A stretch of 64,000 nt of DNA from Mycobacteriales bacterium (GTDB lineage Bacteria > Actinomycetota > Actinomycetes > Mycobacteriales > SCTD01), in NCBI GenBank assembly GCA_030447385.1, contig JAUJOY010000006.1, positions 77,405 to 141,404 on the forward strand, read 5' to 3'. The notes under the pieces are model-generated. The model worked only from the letters and a program-made list of their open reading frames with translations, had not been told where the DNA came from and searched no databases. Below, in pieces: positions 1-11,227 of this stretch. The first letter of the stretch is position 1; each line of letters begins with the position of its first letter. The translations under genes and the position numbers were made by a program.

Positions 1-182
1 ATCGTCGGAAGGCCCTGTGCCAGCTCGATGGGGTCGACGTCGGCGAGGCGCAGGCAGCCGACGAAGCCGGCGACGGCGATCAGGGAGAGGAGCCATCGGG
101 ACACCCGGGTCCGCAGCGGCTGCGCAGGGCGCGGCGGGACGGGGACGAGCCCCACCCCGCTGCGCTCCTGCAGGTCGGTCAT
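1..182 (-). CDS. Phosphonate/phosphite-type ABC transporter permease (PhnE-like), N-terminal part, truncated by window edge
   Basis: Not in the ORF track. ATG at 182 overlaps the TGA of the binding-protein gene (ATGA). Reads MTDLQERSGVGLVPVPPRPAQPLRTRVSRWLLSLIAVAGFVGCLRLADVDPIELAQGLPT, a hydrophobic helix like a PhnE N-terminus. Confidence 0.6.
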   Translation of the reverse strand, partial: MTDLQERSGVGLVPVPPRPAQPLRTRVSRWLLSLIAVAGFVGCLRLADVDPIELAQGLPT

Positions 183-1093
183 CGCCCGATCTTCCCCAGG
201 GACCTGGCGGCTTCGATGATGAGCGCGTAGGTGTCCGCGGTGGCCGGCACGAAGCCGGTGTAGCGCTTGGGCAGCAGGCCGTTGGCCTTGCCGTCGTGCT
301 CGACCGCGAGCACCGCGGCGGTCAGGTCCTGCTTCAGGTCCGGGTCGAGGTCCTTGCGGACCGCGATCGCGTCGTTGGGCAGGTCCGGCGAGGTCCACAC
401 GATCTTGCTCTGCTCAGCCTTGATCGTGCCGGCGTCGATCATGGCGTTGCGGTTGCGGTCGAAGTCGGTGGCGAGGTCGACCTTGTTGTTGGCCACCGCG
501 GTCTCCTGCGCCGGGTGGGCGGCGCCCTCGCTGTAGTCGAAGTAGGTCTTCGGGTCGATGCCCTGCTGCTGAAGCAGGTAGGTCGGGATCAGCCAGCCCG
601 ACGTCGAAGCGGTCTCGGCGAACGACATCCGCAGGCCCTTGGCGTCGCGCGGGTAGTCGACCACCTTGGTGTCGGCAGGGGCCACGACGATCGAGTGGTA
701 GACGGGCTTGCCGTCGTACTCGACCGTGGCGATTGCCTCCGCGCCACCCTTGTCGGCGGCCAGCACGTAGCCGAACGGCCCCATCCAGGCCAGGTCGGTC
801 TTGCCGCTGGCCAGGGACACCGCGAGGCCGGCGTAGTCGCTGCTGACCTCGAGCTCGTAGTCCGCGCCGACCTTCTCGGCGATGGCCCGGAAGAACGGCT
901 CGTAGGCGGTACGGGTGTCCGCCGGGCTCGGCAGGAACGGCCCCACGGCGAAGCGGAGCGTCTCGCGCGGCGTGCTCTGCCCGGCCGCCCCCACGGCGGG
1001 GTCCTGGCCGCTGCCGCAGCCGCTCAGCGCGAACCCCGCGACAGCTGCGAGGGACAAAAAGGTACGGCGGGAGTGCGTGCGCGACATCGACAT
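179..1093 (-). CDS. phnD: Phosphate/phosphite/phosphonate ABC transporter substrate-binding lipoprotein (PhnD/PtxB family), Tat signal
   Basis: SRRTFL twin-arginine motif plus LSGC lipobox; family segments DLAWMGPFGY, ETASTSGWLIP, SPDLPNDAIAVRKDL. Confidence 0.85.
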   Translation of the reverse strand: MSMSRTHSRRTFLSLAAVAGFALSGCGSGQDPAVGAAGQSTPRETLRFAVGPFLPSPADTRTAYEPFFRAIAEKVGADYELEVSSDYAGLAVSLASGKTDLAWMGPFGYVLAADKGGAEAIATVEYDGKPVYHSIVVAPADTKVVDYPRDAKGLRMSFAETASTSGWLIPTYLLQQQGIDPKTYFDYSEGAAHPAQETAVANNKVDLATDFDRNRNAMIDAGTIKAEQSKIVWTSPDLPNDAIAVRKDLDPDLKQDLTAAVLAVEHDGKANGLLPKRYTGFVPATADTYALIIEAARSLGKIGR

Positions 1094-1114: not shown

Positions 1115-2809
1115 TCAGACAGCGCAGTTGTAGACGAGCGGCAGGGAGCCGTCCGCCCGGCGAAGGGTGAGGAAGCGCTCGACCGCGAGCCGCTTGCCCT
1201 CGGCCAGGGACACCGGGCTGTCCGGAGAGGGATGCGCGGCCAGCAGCATGTCCGGGCTGGTCTCCACGTCGGCTCCCGCGGGGTGCCAGTGCACCCCGTC
1301 GGCGGTGTAGGCCAGCTCGGGAACCGTGTTGCCCTCTCCGATCTCCGCCCCGGAGGTGGAGAACCCGCGTTGCACCAGGGGCCGCACCGCGAAGTCCTTG
1401 CCGACGATGCCCATCTGCGTGAGCAGCTCGCGCAGCGGCTCGACCTCGCGGGCGTTCTGCGGCGTCTCGGTCATGCCGACGCGCACCGGAAGCCCCATCT
1501 CCACGGCCAGCTTCAGCCCGTCCATCGCCTTCTGCCACGAGCCCCGCCCGCGGTTCTCGTCGTGCCGCGGAGGCGACGCCGCGTCGATGGAGGTCTGCAG
1601 CACGAGCCGGTCCCGGCCGGCGAGGCGCTGCAGCTGCTCGAGCCGCCAGCCCTGGTAGAGCATCCCGTTGGTGAGGAGGACGACGTCGAGGCGCTCGGTC
1701 GCGTACAGCACCATCTCGACGATGTCGGGCTCGAGGAAGGGCTCACCGCCGGTCAGGTAGATCTCGGAGAACCCCTCCATGACGGCCTCGTCGACGAGGG
1801 ACTTGACCCGCCCGAGGCCGAGGGAGCGCTTCCGGGCCTGCGGGCTGCTGGCGACCGAGCAGTAGGAGCAGGCGAGGTTGCAGTGGAAGTTGGTGTAGAG
1901 CCACAGCCGCGGCGGAAACATCGGCGAGCCGAACAGCGGCACCACCGGCAGCCCGTCGTCGACCACCTCCGGCGCGTCGGCCCACGAGACCGCCTCCTGC
2001 TCGAAGCCCGAGGGCAGGGCCGACCGGTAGAGCTGGTAGCGGCCCTTGCTGCGCTCGTACGGCGGGACGATCTCCAGGCAGGTCGTCCACCAGCCGGTCT
2101 CGACGGTCTCCACGAAGGCCTCGGGGAGGCCACCGGCGCGCATGGACGCGGCCTGCGCCTCCCAGTCGTAGGCGAGCGGGACCAGCTCGGCGCCGACGCT
2201 GCCCGCGTCGAGGTCGACCAGCGCGTACCAGACCTCGCGGCGGCCGTCGTTGGCCGGCCGGCCGAGCACGCCGACGTTGACGACCAGGCTGTCGCCCACC
2301 TGCTTCTGCCAGGGCAGTCCCGAGTGCGTGCACAGGATGAGGTCCGCGCCCGACTCCTGGACCCGCAGCGCGTGCTGCTCGTCCGACAGCGACTCCCACC
2401 AGAAGTCGTTCAGGGCGAGCGTCGACCCGTGGACCATGTGCACGTCGACGCCGTCGAGGCAGAACCGGCGCTCGGTCGGCAGGGTCGTCATCCACTGCGC
2501 GTAGTCGCGGCCCGTGTGGGCGAGCGTGTAGTCGTACATCAACTGGGCGAACTCGTTGTCGCGCGGGTCGGAGTAGCCGCAGCCGCAGTCGGTGTCCCCC
2601 CGGCCGACCGCGACGTCGTAGTTGCCGGCCACGACGGTCACGTCGGCGTCGGTCAACAGCGGCCAGACCGCGTCCGGCTCAGCGCCGTAACCCCCGAGAT
2701 CTCCGAGACAGTAGAGCTTCTCAGCTCCACGGGCCCTCGCGTCGTCCAGGAAGGCCTGCAGCGCGTAGGGGTTGGAGTAGACGCCTCCACACACCGCGAT
2801 GCGGGTCAT
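1115..2809 (-). CDS. Metallophosphoesterase-like domain fused to a radical SAM domain
   Basis: N-terminal half has LGDLGGYG, GNYD, HGS, THSG and NVG motifs. C-terminal half has CNLACSYC (CxxxCxxC), TGGEP and LLTNG. ATG at 2809 is preceded by GGAG. Confidence 0.85.
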   Translation of the reverse strand: MTRIAVCGGVYSNPYALQAFLDDARARGAEKLYCLGDLGGYGAEPDAVWPLLTDADVTVVAGNYDVAVGRGDTDCGCGYSDPRDNEFAQLMYDYTLAHTGRDYAQWMTTLPTERRFCLDGVDVHMVHGSTLALNDFWWESLSDEQHALRVQESGADLILCTHSGLPWQKQVGDSLVVNVGVLGRPANDGRREVWYALVDLDAGSVGAELVPLAYDWEAQAASMRAGGLPEAFVETVETGWWTTCLEIVPPYERSKGRYQLYRSALPSGFEQEAVSWADAPEVVDDGLPVVPLFGSPMFPPRLWLYTNFHCNLACSYCSVASSPQARKRSLGLGRVKSLVDEAVMEGFSEIYLTGGEPFLEPDIVEMVLYATERLDVVLLTNGMLYQGWRLEQLQRLAGRDRLVLQTSIDAASPPRHDENRGRGSWQKAMDGLKLAVEMGLPVRVGMTETPQNAREVEPLRELLTQMGIVGKDFAVRPLVQRGFSTSGAEIGEGNTVPELAYTADGVHWHPAGADVETSPDMLLAAHPSPDSPVSLAEGKRLAVERFLTLRRADGSLPLVYNCAV

Positions 2810-2876: not shown

Positions 2877-4283
2877 TCAGGCCTCCAGGCGGCTCACCAC
2901 GTGCTTGACCCGGGTGTAGTCACGCAGCGAGTACGACGACAGGTCGCTGCCGAACCCGGACGAGGCGTAGCCGCCGTGCGGCATCTCGGTGGCGAGCACC
3001 GAGTGGCAGTTGATCCACACGGCGCCGAAGCCGAGCGTGCGGGCGGCGCGCATCGCGCGGCCGTGGTCGGTCGTCCAGACGCTCGCCGCGAGGCCGTACG
3101 TCGTGTCGTTGGCGACCGCGAGCGCCTCCGCCTCGTCCACGACCCGCTGGAGGGTGATCACCGGGCCGAAGACCTCGTCGGTGGCGAGCTCGTCGCCGCT
3201 CCGAACCCCGCTGACGACAGTGGGCGGGTAGTAGAAGCCCTCTCGCGCCATCGGGCTCCCCCCGGTGAGCACGGCGGTGTGGGCCCCGCGCCGGTCGACC
3301 ATGCCGGCGACCCTGGCGAGCTGGTCGGGGTTGTTGAGCGCCCCGAAGTAGCCGTCGGGGCCTACCGGCATCGCCGCGGCCCCCGCGGCGAGGCGGGCGG
3401 CGAGCTCGTCGTGGATGCCGGGTGTGGCGAGCACCTTGCTCGCGGCCGTGCACGACTGCCCGGCGTTGTAGAAGCCGATGTCCAGCAGCCCCTGCACCGT
3501 CTGCTCGAGGTCGGCGTCGTCGAACACCAGCACCGGCGCCTTGCCGCCGAGCTCGAGGTGCAGGCGCTTCACCGTCGGCGCGGCGGCGGCCATGACGGCG
3601 CGACCCGCGCGCACGGATCCGGTCAGGGCCACCAGCGCCGGGACGGGATGCGCCACCATCGCCTGCCCGGTCTCGCGGCCGCCGCAGACGACGTTGAGCA
3701 CCCCGGCCGGCAGCACCCGCGCGGCGAGCTCGGCCAGCATCAGCGGGGTGACCGGTGTCGTCTCGGCGGACTTGAGGACCACCGTGTTTCCGGCGGCCAC
3801 GGCGGGTGCCCACTTCCAGGTGGCCATCATCAGCGGGTAGTTCCACGGCGTGATCTGGGCGATCACCCCGAGCGGCTCGCGGCGCAGCACCGAGGTGTGG
3901 CCGACCGCGTACTCGCCGGCGGCGAGGCCCTCGGGGACTCGCGCAGCGCCTGCGCTGAAACGCACCACGTCGACGATGTGCGGGATCTCCGCGAGCATCG
4001 CGGCCCGCGGCTTGCCGGTGTTGCGGCACTCCGCGTCGACGAGCCCCTCCGCCTCCTGCTCGATCAGGTCGGCAAGGCGCAGCAGCAGGCGCGACCGCAC
4101 GGCCGGCGTGTGCTCCCGCCAGGTGTGGAAGGCCTCGGCCGCACTGGCGAACGCCGCATCGAGGTCGGCGGGTCCGGCGATGGCTGCGTCCTCGTACGCC
4201 AGACCCGTTGCCGGGTCGACGATCGGTGTCGTCGCGTCGGACAGCGGGGGCCGCGCGGATCCCCCGTAGAAGTGCGTCAGCAT
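2877..4283 (-). CDS. NAD-dependent aldehyde dehydrogenase (gamma-aminobutyraldehyde dehydrogenase-like)
   Basis: PWNYP, LELGGKAP, NAGQSC (catalytic Cys) and EVFGPV motifs. Start uncertain (4283 or 4334). Confidence 0.9.
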   Translation of the reverse strand: MLTHFYGGSARPPLSDATTPIVDPATGLAYEDAAIAGPADLDAAFASAAEAFHTWREHTPAVRSRLLLRLADLIEQEAEGLVDAECRNTGKPRAAMLAEIPHIVDVVRFSAGAARVPEGLAAGEYAVGHTSVLRREPLGVIAQITPWNYPLMMATWKWAPAVAAGNTVVLKSAETTPVTPLMLAELAARVLPAGVLNVVCGGRETGQAMVAHPVPALVALTGSVRAGRAVMAAAAPTVKRLHLELGGKAPVLVFDDADLEQTVQGLLDIGFYNAGQSCTAASKVLATPGIHDELAARLAAGAAAMPVGPDGYFGALNNPDQLARVAGMVDRRGAHTAVLTGGSPMAREGFYYPPTVVSGVRSGDELATDEVFGPVITLQRVVDEAEALAVANDTTYGLAASVWTTDHGRAMRAARTLGFGAVWINCHSVLATEMPHGGYASSGFGSDLSSYSLRDYTRVKHVVSRLEA

Positions 4284-4363
4284 CGGGTCGACAGTAGGCA
4301 ACGAGCGGTGCCGGCGCTCGAGGCCGAGTGTCATCAGGCGCCTGGTCCGCCGGCGACGGAGCC

Positions 4364-5830
4364 TCAGAAGGGCGGTTCGTCGTCCGCGGTCGGCGGCGGC
4401 AGCGCGCGCTCGCCGTGCGGGTCGGCCTCGGGCTCGGCCGCGGGCTTGGCGGGCCGCAGGTCGGTGGCGAGGAGGGGTCGTGGTGCCTGTCCCACGGGTG
4501 GTGGTCGTCGTGGTGGGGGTTCGGCGTCCGGGTCGACCCGTGGTGGTGGGGCGTGCGGGCTGGGTCGGGTGTAGGTCCGCCCGAGGGGCTGGTCCAGGTG
4601 GTGCTGCCGTCAAGGTGGCGCACGAGGGCCCAGTCGGTGTGCTTGGCGGCGTGGCAGCGCGCGGAGAGCAGCCCGAGGTTCCACGCGGCGGTCGGGCCTT
4701 CTGGCCAGGGGATCAGGTGGTCGCGGTGGGTGCGGGTCGAGCCGCACCCGGGTGCGGCGCAGCGCACGTCCCGCAGGTCGACCAGGCGGGCGAGGGCGGC
4801 GGACGGGTCGTGCTGCGGCTCCGCCCGGTCGGTGATCACCTCGGGCCGGTTCATCCTGAGGATCTGCTCCCGCAACCCGGATCGGGTCGGGACTGGCAGG
4901 TTCTGGACGGTCCTGCACGTGCAACGGCCGGCCGGTCTCCTCGTCGATGAGCACCCGGCGCAGCAGGGTGGGGCGCAGCAACCGGACGTGCTCAGCGGTG
5001 AGCGGACCGTAGCGGTCCATCATGCCGGGTTCGCGGGACAGCTCCAGCACGGTGCTCATCGGCACGAGCACGTTGAGCACCACCTGCGGGCGCACCTCGA
5101 CACTGGAACCTGCCACCCAACCCGGGACCGCGCCGTCTTGGGCGGCGAGGACCATCGCCGGGAGGGCGGCGAACAGGTCCGCCCGGCGCTGCTGCGCGGT
5201 GCGCTCCACCCCCGCCTGCCGGTCGCAGATGCGCTCCTTCTTCTCCAGGGTGTCCAGACCGGAGCTCCAGCTGGCCAGCTGCTCCGCGGTCAGCACCGCC
5301 CCGGCCAGTCCCAGCCCGTCCGGCTCTGGGCGGTGAGACGTGTGCCGCCCGGCGGCGGCATCGGCGTGGCGTTGCTCCGCCGCTGCTGGACTGTCCTGCT
5401 CGGCCTCGATCCGCAGCAGCGTGCGGGACACCAGCCGGCGCAGATCCGCCGGGCACAGCAGTGCCCCGTCGGGGAGCACCTCCGCCTCGACCTTCGCCGC
5501 GCGATCTCCTGCGGAGCGTGGGAGGTGACGTGCAGCAGCACCGCGGCCTGCGCAGTCAGCAGCTCCCCGCGCTCGAGCATCCCCAACGTCACCGGCAACG
5601 CCGCATACCGCTCGGCCTCATCCAGCCAACGGGACGCGGTCAGCTGGCCGACCCGCAACGACCCGGCGACCTCCAACGGCAAGAACCGCCGGGTGCCGTC
5701 CGTCCCGCTCAACGCGGCCAGGCGCACCACCGCCCGGATCCGCGAGCCCAGCTGCCGGGCGTCCGCCCGAAGGCTGTCCAGCCAGCCGTCCAGCAACGGC
5801 GTTCGACTCCGCCTCCGACGTGCTGGACAT
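4364..5830 (-). pseudogene. DUF222 (REP13E12-like)-HNH endonuclease element, frameshifted
   Basis: Pieces lie in different frames (5290-5796, 4610-5479, from 4875). HNH segment RCAAPGC...DHLIPWPEGPTAAWNLGLLSARCH; the C-terminus ends EPPF-stop at 4364. Confidence 0.8.
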
Positions 5831-5837
5831 GAGGTAA

Positions 5838-5853
5838 TCGTACATGTGTTCGA
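5838..5853 (-). promoter_or_regulatory. LexA (SOS)-like box inside a putative leaderless sigma70 promoter of the DUF222-HNH element
   Basis: Minus strand TCGAAC-ACAT-GTACGA, one mismatch to actinobacterial TCGAAC-N4-GTTCGA. TAGACA(5865-5860)-N17-TACGAT(5842-5837), then 6 nt to ATG 5830. Confidence 0.7.
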
Positions 5854-5878
5854 ACGCCCTGTCTATCGGAATCGACTT

Positions 5879-5914
5879 CTCCACAGCCTCTTTCGCCGGA
5901 ACGAGGCTGTGGAG
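5879..5914. repeat. Perfect 12-bp inverted repeat
   Basis: CTCCACAGCCTC-N12-GAGGCTGTGGAG. Confidence 0.85.
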
Positions 5915-5919
5915 CGGCC

Positions 5920-6135
5920 GGCGTGGGCAGCGGCTGGAGCTGGGTCGGGTTCGGGCTGAGGCCGGGGGGTCGGGCTGAGGCAGGGGCTGGGACTGGGCAG
6001 GGGTCGGGCTGAGGCAGGGGCTCGAGCTGGGGCGGGCGCTCGGCCTGCGGCCCGGGCTCGGCCTGCGGCCGGGGCTGAAGCGGGGACTGGCTGGGGCTCA
6101 GGGAAAGGAACGCTCCCCACCACCCTCCACCCCGA
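5920..6135. repeat. Low-complexity G-rich degenerate repeats
   Basis: Recurring GGGTCGGGCTGAGGC and GGCCTGCGGCC units. Confidence 0.6.
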
Positions 6136-6139
6136 GCCC

Positions 6140-7750
6140 TCAGCCCGACAGCCGCGTCCGCAACACGGCCTTGTCGGTCTTGCCCACCGCGTTCCGCGGC
6201 AGCTCGTCCACCAGCTCGACCACCTTGGGCGCGGCGTAGTCCGCCATCTGCTCGCGCACCCAGGCGCGGATCTCCGGGGCGCTCACCGCAGTGGCAGCCA
6301 CCACGAAGGCCGCCACCGCCTCCCCGGCAAGAGGATCCGGGACGCCCACCACCGCCGCGTCCTCCACGGCCGGATGCCGGCGCAGCAGCTCCTCCACCTC
6401 GGCCGAGAAGATCTTCGTGCCGCCCCGGTTGATCATGTCCTTGGTCCGGTCGAGGATCGTGACGTAGCCCTCGGCGTCCATCCGAGCGACATCCCCGGTG
6501 TCGAACCAGCCGTCGACGATGGCGGCCGCCGTCGCCGCCGGATCGAAGGCGTAGCCGGTGGTCACGAGCGAGCCGCGCAGCCACAGCGAGCCGGGCTCGC
6601 CGGCCGCCAGAACCTCGCCCGCCTCACACCGGACCTGCGCCTCCATGCAGTCCAGCGTCCGGCCGACGCTGCCCGCCCGCTCCCGCAGGTCGGAGTCGGT
6701 CGCGATGCAGCCGGGCGAGTGGGTCTCCGACAACCCGTACACGTCGTGCAGCCGGGCGTGCGGCAGTCGCTCGCGCAGGCCGGCGACCAGGTCCTCGGGA
6801 AACGGGGCGCCGCCGGCAGCCACCCGGGTGAGCGCCGGCAGCGACGACAGGTCCGGCACCCGCAGGCACAGCCGCCACCACGACGGCACGGCGTACGCCC
6901 ACGACACCCGGTGCGCGCCCAGCACAGCGACGTACTCGCGCGGCGACGCGGTGTCCACGAGAACGCAGGAGGCGCCTGCCAGCATCGCCGGCAGCACATG
7001 CGCGTGCATCGCAGAGATGTAGTACATCGGGAACAGCACGGCGGTGACGTCGTCCGGCTCGAGCTGCAGGATGCGCTGGTAGCTCATGCCGGAGTGCACG
7101 GACGCCCGGTGCACCACCTGCGAGGCCTTGGGGCGGCCCGTGGTGCCGGAGGTGTAGACCACGGCGTACGTCGCGTCCTGCGCCGGCCGCTCGTCCTCGG
7201 CGAGGGCCCACGGCTGCTCCGGGGCCGCGTGCAGCACGTCGGCCAGCGGCTCCGCGGCTGCGGCGCCGGCGGAGCGCAGACCGGCGAGGTGGGCCGGGCC
7301 GCCGAGGGCGAGCGCCACGCGCGAGTGCTCCAGCATGTATGTCCACTGCGCCGGTGCGAGGCGGGTGTTGAGCCCGACCATCACCAGCCCCGCTCTGGCG
7401 CAGGCGAACACCGCGGTGGCCAGGTCGAGGGTGTTCCCGGACGCGACGGCCACGGCGGCGCCTGTCGGCAGGCTCCGCGCTCGGAGCGCCGCCGCCGCCC
7501 TCTCGACCCTGCCGGCGAACGTGCAGTAGCTCACCCGCGTGCCGTCGACGTCGATGAAGGCGGTCCGCTCGGGCCAGCGCCGGACCGCCCGGTCGAGCAC
7601 GTCGAGCACCGTCGCCGGCCGGCGGGCGTAGGAGCGGGCCGGCGCACCGAGCCAGGTCTCGACGACGACCGGGTCGCCCGGCCGGTCGTCGAGGTCGTGC
7701 TCCGGGACCGACGAGGGAGCCGCGACCGGCGAGGGATCCGAGCTCAGCAC
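6140..7750 (-). CDS. Class I adenylate-forming enzyme (acyl-CoA ligase / AMP-binding)
   Basis: YTSGTTGRPK P-loop, YGLSET, GWFDTGD, DRTKDMINRGG, and LPRNAVGK. GTG at 7750 with a GAGGAG RBS, overlapping the ArsR stop. Confidence 0.92.
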   Translation of the reverse strand: MLSSDPSPVAAPSSVPEHDLDDRPGDPVVVETWLGAPARSYARRPATVLDVLDRAVRRWPERTAFIDVDGTRVSYCTFAGRVERAAAALRARSLPTGAAVAVASGNTLDLATAVFACARAGLVMVGLNTRLAPAQWTYMLEHSRVALALGGPAHLAGLRSAGAAAAEPLADVLHAAPEQPWALAEDERPAQDATYAVVYTSGTTGRPKASQVVHRASVHSGMSYQRILQLEPDDVTAVLFPMYYISAMHAHVLPAMLAGASCVLVDTASPREYVAVLGAHRVSWAYAVPSWWRLCLRVPDLSSLPALTRVAAGGAPFPEDLVAGLRERLPHARLHDVYGLSETHSPGCIATDSDLRERAGSVGRTLDCMEAQVRCEAGEVLAAGEPGSLWLRGSLVTTGYAFDPAATAAAIVDGWFDTGDVARMDAEGYVTILDRTKDMINRGGTKIFSAEVEELLRRHPAVEDAAVVGVPDPLAGEAVAAFVVAATAVSAPEIRAWVREQMADYAAPKVVELVDELPRNAVGKTDKAVLRTRLSG

Positions 7751-8073
7751 GGCTCCTCGAACGACGTCACAGCCGCCCGGTCGGCCATCACCGCGAGGCG
7801 CTCGCTCAGCACCCGCAGCGTGTCGGACCGCACCCGGTAGACGCGCAGGTTGGAGCACACGGTGCTGTCCACCAGCAGGCTCTGGCGCAGCACCCGCAGG
7901 TGGTGCGACACCAGCGGCTGCGACATGCCGGTCTCCAGAACGAGGTCCCGCGTGCACATCTGCTGGGCGGTGAGCAGGCGCAGCAGCTGGATCCGCCGCG
8001 GCTCTGCGAGCGCCGCCAGAACCGTCGCGTTGTCCACCTCGGCCGAAGGCTCGCCGCTCACGTCCCGAGACAA
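7744..8073 (-). CDS. ArsR/SmtB family transcriptional regulator
   Basis: ALAEPRRIQLLRLL...SQPLVSHHLRVLR winged-HTH signature. True start may be slightly downstream. Confidence 0.88.
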   Translation of the reverse strand: MSRDVSGEPSAEVDNATVLAALAEPRRIQLLRLLTAQQMCTRDLVLETGMSQPLVSHHLRVLRQSLLVDSTVCSNLRVYRVRSDTLRVLSERLAVMADRAAVTSFEEPC

Positions 8074-8100
8074 CCACAGGGGCGCCCTAGTCTTCCCGGC

Positions 8101-9468
8101 GTGCTGCGCAACCGCTCCGGCCGCTCCGGCCGCCTCGCCCGGCTGCGCATCGAGAAGCCGCCGCAGCTCGTCGCCCTGGCATTCGCCGCCGCCGCCGGTC
8201 TCGTCACCCTGCTGCTGAGCCTTCCGGTGGCCAGCGAGGCCGGCACTGCCACGGCGTTCCTGCCGGCCCTGTTCACCGCCACCTCAGCCGTGTGCGTCAC
8301 CGGGCTCATCGTCGTGGACACACCGACCTACTTCTCCTCCTTCGGCGAGCTCGTCATCCTCGGGGCCATCCAGGTCGGCGGCATCGGCATCATGACGCTG
8401 TCCTCCCTGCTCGGGCTGCTGGTCTTCCGGCGGCTCGGCCTGCGCAGCCGCATGACGGCGGCCGTCGAGACGAAGGCGCTGGGGATCGGCGACGTGCGGC
8501 GCGTGCTGCGCTCGGTGGTCGGCTTCTCGCTGTTCTTCGAGAGCGTGGCGATGGTGGTCCTGACGCTGCGCTGGCTCACCGCGTACGACGAGCCGCTCGG
8601 CCGCGCCTTCTACCTCGGCCTCTTCCACGCCGTGTCCGCGTTCAACAACGCCGGCTTCGCGTTGTTCAGCGACAACATGATCAGCTTTCGGACGGACGCG
8701 GTGATCAGCCTGACCCTGTGCCTGGCGGTGATCGCGGGGGGGATCGGTTTCCCGGTCCTCTACGAGCTGCGCCGCGAGCTGCGCACGCCCCGGCTGTGGA
8801 CCGTGCACACCCGGATCACCGTCTGGACGACCGCCATCCTGCTCACCCTGGGGACCGCGACGGTCACGGCCATCGAGTGGAGCAACCCGGACACGCTCGG
8901 TAGCGCGGGGGTGGGCGGCAAGCTGCTGGCCGGCTTCTTCCTCGGGGTGATGCCGCGGACCGCCGGCTTCAACAACATCGACTACGCCGACGCCGACTCG
9001 GCCACGCTGCTCGTGACCGACATCCTCATGTTCATCGGCGGCGGGTCGGCGGGCACCGCCGGCGGCATCAAGGTCACCACGTTCGCCCTGCTCGCCTTTG
9101 TCATGTACGCGGAGGCGCGCGCGCAACCGGAGGTGCTCGTCGCCGGGCGCACCCTGCCGCGCCAGGTGCAGCGCCAGGCCGTGACGGTGGCGCTGCTCGG
9201 GGTGGGGCTCGTCGTCAGCGGCACGCTGGCGCTGCTGCTGCTGACCCCACTGCCGCTGGATGCCGTGCTGTTCGAGGTGACGTCCGCCTTCGCCACGGTG
9301 GGGCTGTCCACGGGGATCACTGCGACGCTGCCAGGGGCCGCCCAGCTGGTGCTGATCGCCCTGATGTTCCTCGGCCGCCTCGGGCCCATCACACTGGCCT
9401 CGGCGCTCGCCTTGCGCTCCCGCCCGATCCTGTACCGACTGCCTGAGGAGCGTCCCATTGTCGGCTGA
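8101..9468 (+). CDS. trkH: TrkH/KtrB potassium uptake membrane subunit
   Basis: ATSAVCVTGL, SAFNNAGF, PRTAGF, SAFATVGLSTG pore motifs. GTG at 8101 lies 7 nt after a TAGTCT -10-like hexamer. Confidence 0.92.
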   Translation: MLRNRSGRSGRLARLRIEKPPQLVALAFAAAAGLVTLLLSLPVASEAGTATAFLPALFTATSAVCVTGLIVVDTPTYFSSFGELVILGAIQVGGIGIMTLSSLLGLLVFRRLGLRSRMTAAVETKALGIGDVRRVLRSVVGFSLFFESVAMVVLTLRWLTAYDEPLGRAFYLGLFHAVSAFNNAGFALFSDNMISFRTDAVISLTLCLAVIAGGIGFPVLYELRRELRTPRLWTVHTRITVWTTAILLTLGTATVTAIEWSNPDTLGSAGVGGKLLAGFFLGVMPRTAGFNNIDYADADSATLLVTDILMFIGGGSAGTAGGIKVTTFALLAFVMYAEARAQPEVLVAGRTLPRQVQRQAVTVALLGVGLVVSGTLALLLLTPLPLDAVLFEVTSAFATVGLSTGITATLPGAAQLVLIALMFLGRLGPITLASALALRSRPILYRLPEERPIVG

Positions 9469-9476
9469 GGCCCGAA

Positions 9477-10145
9477 GTGGCTAAGACCAAGCCGGTCGAT
9501 CCCGTCCTCGTCATCGGGCTGGGCCGGTTCGGCAGCGCGGTGGCGGAGTCACTCGTCGACCTCGGGCACGAGGTGCTCGGCGTCGACCGCGACGACGCGC
9601 TCGTGCAGGAGTGGTCGGGCAAGCTGACCTCCGTGGTCCAGGCCGACACCACCTCGGAGGAGGCGATGCGGCAGATCGGGGCGGCGGACTTCCCGCGAGC
9701 CGTCGTGTGCATCGGTGGCGCGGTGGAGAGCAGCATCCTGTCGGTCGGCGTCCTGGTCGACCTCGAGATCCCTGTGATCTGGGCGAAGGCGCTGACCACC
9801 GCGCACGGGCGCATCCTGGAGCGGGTTGGCGCGCACAAGGTCGTCTACCCCGAGCACGACATGGGGGAGCGGGTGGCGCACATGGTGACCGGGCGGATGC
9901 TGGAGTTCTTCGCCCTCGACGACGACAACTTCGCCCTGGTCGAGACCGAGCCTCCGGGCCAGCTCGTCGGCAAGAAGCTCGGCGCCTCGAACATCCGCCG
10001 TGACCACGGGGTCACGGTGGTGTGCCTCAAGCCGGAGGGTCAGCCGTTCGGCTATGCGACAGCGGAGACGGTCATCACCCCGAAGTCACGACTGATCGTC
10101 GCGGGGGAGACCGAGCTGGTCGAGCGCTTCGCCAACCTCGTCTGA
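9477..10145 (+). CDS. trkA: TrkA/KtrA RCK-domain potassium uptake subunit
   Basis: VIGLGRFG Rossmann motif; VVYPEHDMGERVAH. Confidence 0.92.
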   Translation: MAKTKPVDPVLVIGLGRFGSAVAESLVDLGHEVLGVDRDDALVQEWSGKLTSVVQADTTSEEAMRQIGAADFPRAVVCIGGAVESSILSVGVLVDLEIPVIWAKALTTAHGRILERVGAHKVVYPEHDMGERVAHMVTGRMLEFFALDDDNFALVETEPPGQLVGKKLGASNIRRDHGVTVVCLKPEGQPFGYATAETVITPKSRLIVAGETELVERFANLV

Positions 10146-11227
10146 TGGCGCTCAGCAACCGCGTACCCGGCCCGTCGCGCACGCCTGGTGCGTCCCGCTC
10201 CGCCGGACGGGCGACTGCTGCCGTCGTCCTGCCACACAGGACCCTCGGCCCGGTCAAGGCGGTATTCCGCCGCATCGTCATCGCCATCGCGACGTTGACC
10301 GGCGTCGCCCTCATCGTCTGGCTCGACCGCGACGGCTACACCGACACCTCGGACCGCAGCGTGGACCTGCTCGACGCCTTCTACTACGCGACGGTCAGCC
10401 TCTCCACGACCGGCTACGGCGACATCACCCCCGTCAGTGACCAGGCCCGGCTGGTCAACCTGTTCGTGATCACCCCCCTGCGCCTGCTGTTCCTCATCAT
10501 CCTCGTCGGCACCACCCTCGAGGTGCTCACCGAACGCACCCGTGATCAGATCCGGCAGAACCGTTGGAGGGCCTCCTTGCGCCAGCACACCGTGGTCGTC
10601 GGCTACGGCACCAAGGGACGCAGCGCCGTGCGCGCGCTGCTCGACGACGGCGTCGACAAGGACCGCATCGTGGCCGTGGACAACGACCCCGAGCACATCG
10701 CCGACGCGACCGACGACGGCATCGTCGCCATCGTGGGCGACGGCACGCGTGCCGACGTCCTGCACCGCGCCGACATCGAGCACGCGAAGCGCGTGATCGT
10801 CGCCGTGCCCCGCGACGACGCCGCCGTCCTCGTGACCCTCACCGTGCGCAGGTACAACTCCGCGGCTTACGTTGTTGCCGCGGTGCGCGAGAGCGAGAAC
10901 GCGCTGCTGCTGCGCGAGGGCGGAGCGGACGGGGTCGTCGTCTCGTCCGAGGCCGCCGGACGCCTTCTCGGTGTCGCCGCCACCAGCCCGTCCACCGGTG
11001 CCATCTTCGAGGACCTGCTGGTGCCGGGCTCGGGCCTGGAGCTGGCCGAGCGGGAGGTGACCCGTGAGGAGGTCGGTCTCGCTCCACGAGCGTGCCAGGA
11101 CCTCGTGGTGGCCGTGCTCCGGGACGACGAGAAGACCATGTTCACGGAGGACACCAGCCTGAAGCTGCGCAAGACCGATCGCATCGTCGTGATCCGCAAG
11201 GCCCTGGAGCGGATCCCGCACTCCTGA
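10145..11227 (+). CDS. Potassium channel protein with TrkA-N (RCK) domain
   Basis: STTGYGDI selectivity filter; VVGYGTKG RCK motif; TGATG overlap with trkA. Confidence 0.9.
   Translation: MALSNRVPGPSRTPGASRSAGRATAAVVLPHRTLGPVKAVFRRIVIAIATLTGVALIVWLDRDGYTDTSDRSVDLLDAFYYATVSLSTTGYGDITPVSDQARLVNLFVITPLRLLFLIILVGTTLEVLTERTRDQIRQNRWRASLRQHTVVVGYGTKGRSAVRALLDDGVDKDRIVAVDNDPEHIADATDDGIVAIVGDGTRADVLHRADIEHAKRVIVAVPRDDAAVLVTLTVRRYNSAAYVVAAVRESENALLLREGGADGVVVSSEAAGRLLGVAATSPSTGAIFEDLLVPGSGLELAEREVTREEVGLAPRACQDLVVAVLRDDEKTMFTEDTSLKLRKTDRIVVIRKALERIPHS

Follow-up and report, generated by a model that had tools for sequence, protein, structure and literature searches.

A candidate organoarsenic enzyme of Actinomycetota joining a Car1-type metallophosphoesterase domain to a radical SAM domain

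In the literature that we found, the formation of carbon–arsenic (C–As) bonds is ascribed to ArsM-type methylation, to the radical S-adenosylmethionine (SAM) enzymes ArsS, which adenosylates dimethylarsenite in arsenosugar synthesis, and ArsL, which transfers a 3-amino-3-carboxypropyl unit (ACP) to As(III), and to a non-SAM arsenoenolpyruvate route. According to a 2025 review (PMC12159101), methylarsenicals and bisenarsan were the only arsenic compounds that actinomycetes were known to produce. Reduction of As(V) by a metallophosphoesterase (MPE)-type enzyme has been described for Car1 of Rufibacter tibetensis, in which Cys74 and Cys76 are essential (PMC12124457, citing Shen et al. 2024, Mol Microbiol 122:201), and the same paper gives about 40% identity to Car1 for Orf1 of a Paraclostridium ars operon. 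Here, we describe a protein, hereafter the fusion, in which an MPE domain of the Car1 type is covalently joined to a radical SAM (rSAM) domain. Its gene lies in a 64,000-nucleotide stretch of DNA, referred to as the window, from a Mycobacteriales bacterium of the lineage SCTD01 (GenBank assembly GCA_030447385.1, contig JAUJOY010000006.1, forward-strand positions 77,405 to 141,404). With a probability of roughly 55%, we propose that the fusion is a 2-module organoarsenic enzyme, for which ArsS-like adenosylation of trivalent arsenic is the most likely reaction. A preliminary description of this DNA, prepared from its sequence alone, had regarded the protein as uncharacterized, and our literature search indeed found no publication on the fusion or its gene cluster.

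Domain architecture of the fusion

The fusion is encoded on the minus strand, at positions 1115..2809 of the window (stop codon 1115–1117), by a frame that is unbroken over 564 codons and yields a product of 564 amino acids. The ATG at 2809 is preceded by a GGAG ribosome-binding site 4 nt on its 5′ side, and homologs are 558 to 565 amino acids long with the N-terminus M-x-R-I-A; we therefore prefer this start over a longer TTG start at 2851, which is unlikely. The product scores above the Pfam gathering scores of both Metallophos_2 (residues 13–202, E = 2e-13, 51 bits versus 27) and Radical_SAM (PF04055; residues 309–462, E = 4.7e-21, 76.1 bits versus 29.5). The linker between the 2 domains (residues 259–299; 1913..2035, minus strand) is modeled with low confidence, its predicted local distance difference test (pLDDT) values being 53–77 in an AlphaFold model with a mean of 88, and is partly conserved, with the segments P288-V-x-x-L-F and F298-P-x-R-L-W recurring in homolog alignments. 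Cysteines C75, C77, C160, C244, C310, C314, C317, and C562 are invariant in 79 homologs. The open reading frame, the Pfam matches, and the cysteine positions confirm the uninterrupted MPE–rSAM fusion without SPASM cysteines seen in the preliminary description, and the motifs quoted there (GGVYSN, GNY, DCGCGY, CxxxCxxC, and a terminal NCAV) are all present in the translation.

A search over 5.8 billion proteins returned more than 2,000 database proteins matching the fusion, and the best 120 matches are all approximately 560 amino acids long, contain both domains, and show 68% to 90% identity. In a scan of species-representative genomes, the fusion was present in 243 species genomes, among them metagenome-assembled genomes (MAGs) of the Mycobacteriales/Frankiales type and genomes of Acidimicrobiales, Pseudonocardia, numerous cultured Streptomyces, and Thermoleophilia. 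An assembly chimera that would be missing from relatives, a concern voiced in the preliminary description, is excluded by these 243 genomes and by the conserved linker residues. Of 22 high-quality genomes from the source genus and order, 6 contain the fusion; judged by this patchy presence among relatives, it is an accessory gene. A plasmid search for the full-length fusion yielded single-domain relatives only.

The N-terminal domain (residues 1–258; 2036..2809, minus strand) adopts a YfcE/SapH-like MPE fold. In Foldseek searches with the model of the fusion, SapH/Spr1479 (3QFM), 3RQZ, 1NNW, and 2GJU, which are relatives from the YfcE-like MPE branch with a helical insert, were matched with template modeling (TM) scores of about 0.8 over the target. 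With the canonical CGC-bearing MPE P0234, the domain shares 32% identity (E = 5e-49), and cysteines 75 and 77 of its motif D74-C75-G-C77-G-Y79 (2573..2590, minus strand) fall exactly on C74 and C76 of that protein; they also align with the CxC of the Paraclostridium ars-operon MPE in an alignment (A2) in which 11/11 sequences keep the motif, as do the 79 homologs of the fusion. The CxC pair is equivalent to Cys74/Cys76 of Car1, and the domain is classified as Car1-type, a kinship judged by way of homologs from the bacterial family of R. tibetensis, the Hymenobacteraceae, and from Paraclostridium. The preliminary suggestion that the cysteine cluster may bind a metalloid thus finds a precedent in Car1. 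On annotated plasmids, homologs of P0234 sit in ars operons, including that of plasmid pHA of Hymenobacter sp. APR13 (L088, 16800–20112), where a canonical CGC-bearing MPE occurs in the order ArsR-DUF6428-MPE-GNAT-ACR3; the corresponding order on the Paraclostridium plasmid is ArsR-MPE-ArsM. DUF6428 is an uncharacterized but regular member of the Hymenobacter-type ars/MPE operon.

In the standard ligand scheme of MPEs, motif I contributes its Asp and His to metal 1, which is also coordinated by the bridging Asp of motif II and by the second GHxH His; this bridging Asp coordinates metal 2 as well, together with the motif III Asn, the motif IV His, and the first GHxH His. The fusion has a degenerate motif I, C7-G-G-V-Y-S-N13 (2771..2791, minus strand; canonical D-x-H-x-N), in which, across 36 homologs, G9 is invariant and Y11 is conserved in at least 90%. 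The metal-1 ligands are all replaced (Asp by G9, His of motif I by Y11, and the second His of GHxH by G164), and those of metal 2 (D37, N63, H127, and H162) are all invariant. The domain accordingly has the fold and the Pfam score of a calcineurin-like MPE but not the complete binuclear site (DxH, GD, GNH, H, and GHxH), and we refer to it as belonging to a half-site branch. Motif I is likewise degenerate in the solved relatives 1NNW and 2GJU.

Two traits that had been taken as peculiar to the fusion proved to be older. An exhaustive homolog search found motif III in the form present in the fusion (G62-N-Y-D) and the CGC insert at positions 74/76 also in canonical members with DxH and G-H-T-H, such as P0234, and both are inherited traits shared across a YfcE-like subfamily. 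What is derived in the fusion branch is the loss of all metal-1 ligands and the gain of a cysteine in the tail motif G-W-W-T-T-C244-L-E (2072..2095, minus strand). C244 is invariant, and the conserved cysteine is confined to the half-site branch, the tail of which reads T-G-W-W-T-T-C-L-E: the tail cysteine, the loss of DxH, and the loss of the second GHxH His occur together in 355 of 423 CxC-bearing sequences, whereas the tail cysteine is found in none of the canonical CxC sequences, a small sample of 8. Because 3 thiolates are the usual ligand set of As(III), these changes would fit the gradual conversion of a reductase that works with metal assistance into a site that holds arsenic on thiols.

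Outside the fusion, half-site MPEs are associated with known arsenic enzymes. In Alphaproteobacteria, a half-site MPE is fused to an arsenosugar-type ArsM (NF038099, 465 bits versus a cut-off of 400), and this MPE–ArsM fusion adjoins a PhnD-type ABC transporter, echoing the source locus; hundreds of other alphaproteobacterial proteins combine a half-site MPE with another Rv1681-like rSAM domain. In a Casimicrobiaceae MAG (L092), a stand-alone half-site MPE gene overlaps the beginning of a bona fide ArsS gene (TIGR04167, 457 bits versus 300), the product of which carries DUF3641 (PF12345). This pair is followed by TIGR04283 (247 bits versus 182) and the start of TIGR04282, and preceded by genes that encode a DedA/VTT protein and a disulfide reductase. 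The neighbors of another stand-alone half-site MPE, from a cyanobacterium (L091), were uninformative.

The C-terminal half of the fusion (residues 300–564; 1118..1912, minus strand) is a member of the radical SAM superfamily, with a [4Fe-4S]/SAM cluster motif C310-x3-C314-x2-C317 (1859..1882, minus strand) that is invariant in 79/79 homologs; the nearest solved folds in Foldseek are SkfB, BlsE, SuiB, and anSME. The auxiliary cysteine set of SPASM/twitch domains is absent, the sole cysteine beyond residue 317 being the invariant C562 in the C-terminal N-C562-A-V (1118..1129, minus strand). The best curated family is NF049973 (Rv1681 family radical SAM), which the fusion matches with 269.5 bits over model positions 72–287 of 326; with a cut-off of 380 and a score of 437 for the true member P0165, the fusion lies outside this equivalog family. 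Nevertheless, it has in common with the Rv1681 family a W-H-P-x-G-x-D motif and a cysteine 2 to 3 residues from the C-terminus, where P0165 reads FRCA and a Mycolicibacterium vanbaalenii homolog FPCA. A kinship to PhnJ or ArsS, the rSAM enzymes cited in the preliminary description, was not borne out, and neither was one to ArsL. The ArsS model (TIGR04167) gave 46.4–47.9 bits versus a cut-off of 300, with no DUF3641 detected by Pfam; BLASTP against an ArsL annotated by the Prokaryotic Genome Annotation Pipeline (PGAP; Pseudomonas amygdali plasmid) aligned 49 residues round the cluster motif with an E-value of 0.003, and the C-terminus of the fusion, YNCAV, does not contain the RCCLKC tail of ArsL. 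An Rv1681-like rSAM protein on an M. vanbaalenii plasmid (L090; NZ_CP126902.1, 125445–140095) is 47% identical to the rSAM half. It follows genes for an acyl-CoA dehydrogenase and for a protein that resembles PhnD/SsuA and was taken as cytoplasmic, an arrangement comparable to the Rv1679–Rv1681-type trio of M. tuberculosis, and is surrounded by redox genes (deiodinase-like, AhpD-like, glutaredoxin, and CcdA) as well as by another rSAM protein and a methyltransferase.

Genomic neighborhood of the fusion

Partner genes were counted in the 39 loci that extend 8 kb or more to either side of the fusion. The recurrent partners were TIGR04283 (35/39 loci), a flavoprotein designated fam2 (34/39), a second rSAM protein (32/39), a MerA-like reductase (30/39), a PNP/MTAP-type phosphorylase (25/39), TIGR04282 (22/39), and an ArsM-like protein (17/39). 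In Streptomyces and Pseudonocardia, a co-directional string comprises a MerA-like disulfide reductase, a MauE-like protein, the second rSAM protein, an MTAP-like phosphorylase, TIGR04282 (181 bits versus 134), TIGR04283 (232 versus 182), the fusion, and the flavoprotein, with divergent genes for a methyltransferase, DedA, and an ArsM-like protein. A compact unit in Acidimicrobiales consists of the flavoprotein, a PNP-like protein, an aldehyde dehydrogenase, and the fusion. The aldehyde dehydrogenase gene adjoins the fusion in 8 of the 13 loci that have it. The second rSAM protein, exemplified by the Streptomyces loci L049 and L060 (about 6100–7760), is 470 amino acids long and contains a CNLKCTPC motif; it has no match among the NCBIfam models and barely matches Pfam Radical_SAM.

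The frequency of this second, unrelated rSAM protein bears on a reading in which the N-domain is an arsenic carrier or pseudo-enzyme and the fused rSAM domain modifies or breaks an existing organoarsenical, through a sugar or side-chain rearrangement or C–As cleavage of an imported methylarsenical. The second rSAM protein could then be the C–As former in the loci that have it, PhnCDE (see below) could import a phosphonate-like pentavalent organoarsenical, and the loss of one metal site, together with the degenerate motif I of 1NNW and 2GJU, would fit an N-domain devoid of catalysis. We nonetheless regard this as unlikely, although the least so among the alternatives, since the source genome keeps the fusion near ArsM without a second rSAM protein or ArsS, and since the Casimicrobiaceae half-site MPE pairs directly with ArsS, a known C–As former.

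The redox proteins of the related clusters, which besides the MerA-like disulfide reductases include AhpC/TSA-like and AhpD-like proteins, could also point to another metalloid or chalcogen (selenium, tellurium, antimony, or sulfur) as the true substrate. ArsM-family enzymes can methylate elements other than arsenic, and a segment of the Rv1681 family resembles, as read by eye alone, a TusA-like protein of the sulfur-relay type. However, the links of the half-site branch pass curated arsenic cut-offs (NF038099 for ArsM and TIGR04167 for ArsS) and are complemented by the ACR3 operons. Moreover, the sole assayed relative of the N-domain reduces arsenate, according to PMC12124457. A different element is hence improbable.

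In the source genome, the gene order on a single strand is ArsR, acyl-CoA ligase, a DUF222-HNH insert, aldehyde dehydrogenase, the fusion, PhnD, PhnE, PhnC, and an ArsM-family methyltransferase, followed by a FabI-like reductase, a second ligase, a second ArsR, PstS, PstCA, PstB, a flavoprotein, and a PNP-family phosphorylase. The string is headed by an ArsR/SmtB metalloregulator with 3 conserved cysteines (7744..8073, minus strand; NF033788, 67.5 versus a cut-off of 55), followed by the AMP-dependent acyl-CoA ligase (6140..7726, minus strand, approximate start) and, 67 nt upstream of the fusion, an aldehyde dehydrogenase resembling aminobutyraldehyde/betaine-aldehyde dehydrogenases (2877..4310, minus strand). 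Close relatives retain the order ligase-aldehyde dehydrogenase-fusion. The DUF222-HNH-type element (4364–5914, both strands), which includes an HNH-like stretch in the list of open reading frames, appears to have split the ligase–aldehyde dehydrogenase operon, because the 2 genes are adjacent in the relatives L007, L009, and L012. The pair of ArsR and AMP-dependent ligase is duplicated approximately 12 kb apart, at 6140–8073 of the window and at C3:71031-73333, outside the window. The ArsR paralog (C3:71031-71393) has the same 3 cysteines, which both copies keep in xxCTRDL, STxCSN, and a C-terminal EPC. PstS-PstCA-PstB adjoins the second ArsR (C3:65359-70664, outside the window, upstream of its position 1), and beside the Pst genes lie a fam2 flavoprotein, 56% identical to the Streptomyces fusion partner, and a PNP-family phosphorylase, both being conserved partners of the fusion elsewhere. 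Beyond ArsR, the opposite strand encodes a putative set for K+ uptake, made up of a TrkH-like membrane protein, a TrkA-like protein, and a K+ channel-like protein (7900–11227, recognized from their translations alone), which are probably unrelated.

Immediately downstream of the fusion, after 21 nt, lies the gene for a PhnD-type lipoprotein substrate-binding protein (179..1093, minus strand; PF12974, E = 1.9e-56), which exceeds the TIGR01098 cut-off (174.6 versus 112) but stays below that of the PhnD equivalog (184.5 versus 261). The start of phnE overlaps the phnD stop; its 5′ end (1..182, minus strand; TIGR01097, 262 versus 217) runs past the window, and PhnC and PhnE both score above equivalog cut-offs. 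These genes, together with the phosphoesterase fold, could suggest that a phosphonate or phosphite is imported by PhnCDE, its phosphoester hydrolyzed by the MPE half, and its C–P bond acted on by the rSAM half, the organophosphorus option of the preliminary description. In relatives, however, PhnCDE accompanies the fusion in just 5 of 80 loci, and ArsM follows either PhnDEC or, in L008, L012, and L013, the fusion directly; the transporter is therefore a lineage-specific insertion and not a core part of the system, which weakens the earlier proposal that the adjacent PhnD/PhnE imports the substrate. Furthermore, the PhnD-type protein falls short of its equivalog, no PhnJ was found in the 100% complete source genome, no phosphonate gene occurs among the conserved partners, half of the binuclear phosphoesterase center is gone, and the recurrent partners are all of the arsenic type. 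An organophosphorus substrate is thus very improbable, whereas the organoarsenic alternative that had been offered alongside it is supported. A survey of gene neighborhoods, which had been proposed as a check, accordingly gave little for phnDE but did recover ArsM-like genes and other arsenic-type partners; together with ArsR and the ArsM-family methyltransferase of the source locus, these bear out the arsenic surroundings.

For the ArsM-family methyltransferase of the source genome, the best model is that of the arsinothricin ArsM, matched over its full length with 336 bits versus a cut-off of 500, and its 4 catalytic cysteines, at 30/53/180/232, correspond to cysteines 30/54/181/233 of BgArsM (PMC8552651). 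This raises an ArsL-like scheme, in which the ACP group of SAM would be transferred to As(III) and the product methylated by ArsM to an arsinothricin-type amino acid; 5′-methylthioadenosine (MTA), the by-product of ArsL (bioRxiv 10.64898/2026.04.29.721666), would be cleared by the MTAP-like enzymes of related clusters. Yet, the closest annotated relatives of the methyltransferase belong to a Staphylococcus/Cupriavidus clade without an rSAM partner (52%–54% identity, versus 39% for the arsinothricin-cluster ArsM), TIGR04282, TIGR04283, and the aldehyde dehydrogenase better match a ribose-derived product, and the resemblance to ArsL stops at the cluster motif, with no counterpart of its tail. 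We consider the scheme unlikely, somewhat more so than a carrier function of the N-domain. Since its nearest relatives lie in an arsenic cassette beside arsRBC, the neighboring enzyme is, by sequence, a methyltransferase of the arsenic type, although it cannot be shown to belong to arsinothricin synthesis. One such cassette, ArsR-permease-methyltransferase, is found on Staphylococcus aureus plasmid pSA159 (L093, 44598–46967), where the enzyme, 53% identical to that of the source genome, is annotated merely as "methyltransferase domain-containing protein."

Proposed role in organoarsenic metabolism

ArsS-like adenosylation is favored because the fusion occupies the place of ArsS in the proteobacterial cassette, carries the MPE module that accompanies ArsS, and frequently has a PNP/MTAP-type partner. 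The organoarsenic reading also draws support from a profile search of the source genome that found no canonical ArsS, which leaves no other candidate. In the proposed pathway, the N-domain would have descended from Car1-type arsenate reductases, with the loss of one metal site and the acquisition of a further conserved cysteine, its third, in a flexible tail. It would bind arsenic on the thiolates of C75, C77, and probably C244, perhaps reducing As(V), and would pass As(III), or methyl-As(III), on to the rSAM domain to which it is joined. The latter, a canonical [4Fe-4S]/SAM enzyme of Rv1681-like lineage, would stand in for ArsS, cleaving SAM and forming a C–As bond, most likely by addition of the 5′-deoxyadenosyl radical to trivalent arsenic. 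A PNP/MTAP-type phosphorylase could then remove adenine, and the frequency of this partner fits such removal from a 5′-deoxyadenosyl adduct, by the logic of HpnH/HpnG or of ArsS followed by a nucleosidase. In the source organism, the aldehyde dehydrogenase and the CoA ligases may process the sugar-derived chain, the ArsM-family methyltransferase may methylate the arsenic, PhnCDE probably imports an arsenic oxyanion, and ArsR would control the gene set. A 2-step enzyme, as proposed in the preliminary description, with arsenic handling or reduction preceding rSAM chemistry, thus appears to be the best reading. More tentatively, the fusion may represent a self-contained third lineage of C–As-forming rSAM enzymes, in which the Car1-derived module reduces arsenate or methylarsonate imported by PhnCDE and holds the arsenic on 3 thiolates at the rSAM site, yielding, with ArsM, the aldehyde dehydrogenase, and the ligases, an undescribed organoarsenic acid or lipid-linked product; this elaboration is possible, but doubtful.

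Several points weigh against the organoarsenic reading. We infer arsenic as the substrate from homology, domain fusions, and gene order; likewise, the reductase or carrier activity of the N-domain, the formation of a C–As bond, and the identity of the SAM-derived radical are all predictions. The facts on Car1 come by way of the citing paper (PMC12124457), and reductase activity may have been lost together with the metal-1 site. The Rv1681 family, which contains the closest relatives of the rSAM half, has no known link to arsenic and has TusA-like and substrate-binding-protein (SBP)-like partners, and, given this kinship, the rSAM half may catalyze a different radical reaction. The "arsenosugar" names of TIGR04282 and TIGR04283 rest on co-occurrence. 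In addition, only 17 of the 39 complete loci counted above have an ArsM-like gene at a distance of up to 10 kb, and the source genome itself contains neither orthologs of TIGR04282 and TIGR04283 nor the second rSAM protein that travel with the fusion elsewhere.

The fusion family is widely distributed: hundreds of Actinomycetota from soil and freshwater have it, among them Streptomyces and Pseudonocardia that can be cultured, and sister fusions occur in Alphaproteobacteria. If the fusion does form C–As bonds, it would constitute a third enzyme lineage with this ability and would explain how cells link the reduction of arsenate to the synthesis of organoarsenicals. Such an activity would further suggest that arsenic natural products await discovery; compounds of this kind include antibiotics such as arsinothricin. 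Finally, the N-domain illustrates the stepwise remodeling of a phosphoesterase active site into a thiol-based site that presumably binds a metalloid.

Comparison with known systems

Car1 and homologs of it encoded in ars operons, for example Orf1 of Paraclostridium, share with the N-domain of the fusion the YfcE/SapH-like fold, GNYD, and the C-G-C at 74/76 (75/77 in the fusion), the identity of Car1-type homologs to this domain being about 30%–33% over about 237 residues; an arsenic context is common to both. Unlike Car1, the fusion N-domain lacks the whole metal-1 site, has the tail cysteine, and is covalently joined to an rSAM domain.

ArsS has a CX3CX2C rSAM core like that of the fusion, and, with a half-site MPE, TIGR04283/TIGR04282, and a disulfide reductase as neighbors, it takes a position equivalent to that of the fusion in Streptomyces and Pseudonocardia. 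By contrast, the fusion does not contain the Cys-rich (or Sec) DUF3641 domain; it ends in an Rv1681-type part that has just one terminal cysteine. ArsL, which binds arsenic through its C-terminal RCCLKC, resembles the fusion in having cysteines beyond the cluster motif, those of the fusion being putative arsenic ligands, and in being followed by an ArsM-family methyltransferase, the one next to the fusion being related to the arsinothricin type. It differs in its N-terminal domain and in its CCxxC tail, and the similarity is not meaningful beyond the cluster motif.

The Rv1681 (MoeX) family, which has SBP-like partners of the Rv1680 type, is the best-scoring rSAM family and includes the Mycolicibacterium plasmid protein described above; in the fusion, however, the 258-residue MPE domain replaces the N-terminal approximately 70 residues of this family (TusA-like by eye only). 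HpnH and HpnG of hopanoid side-chain synthesis, in which an rSAM enzyme adds the 5′-deoxyadenosyl radical and a PNP-family enzyme removes adenine, offer an analogy in pathway logic only: their models match the rSAM half and the neighboring phosphorylases weakly, far below cut-off, and the substrate is hopene, versus, as proposed, arsenic here. Overall, we rate the fusion as an uncharacterized variant among the arsenic radical SAM systems and not yet as a new category.

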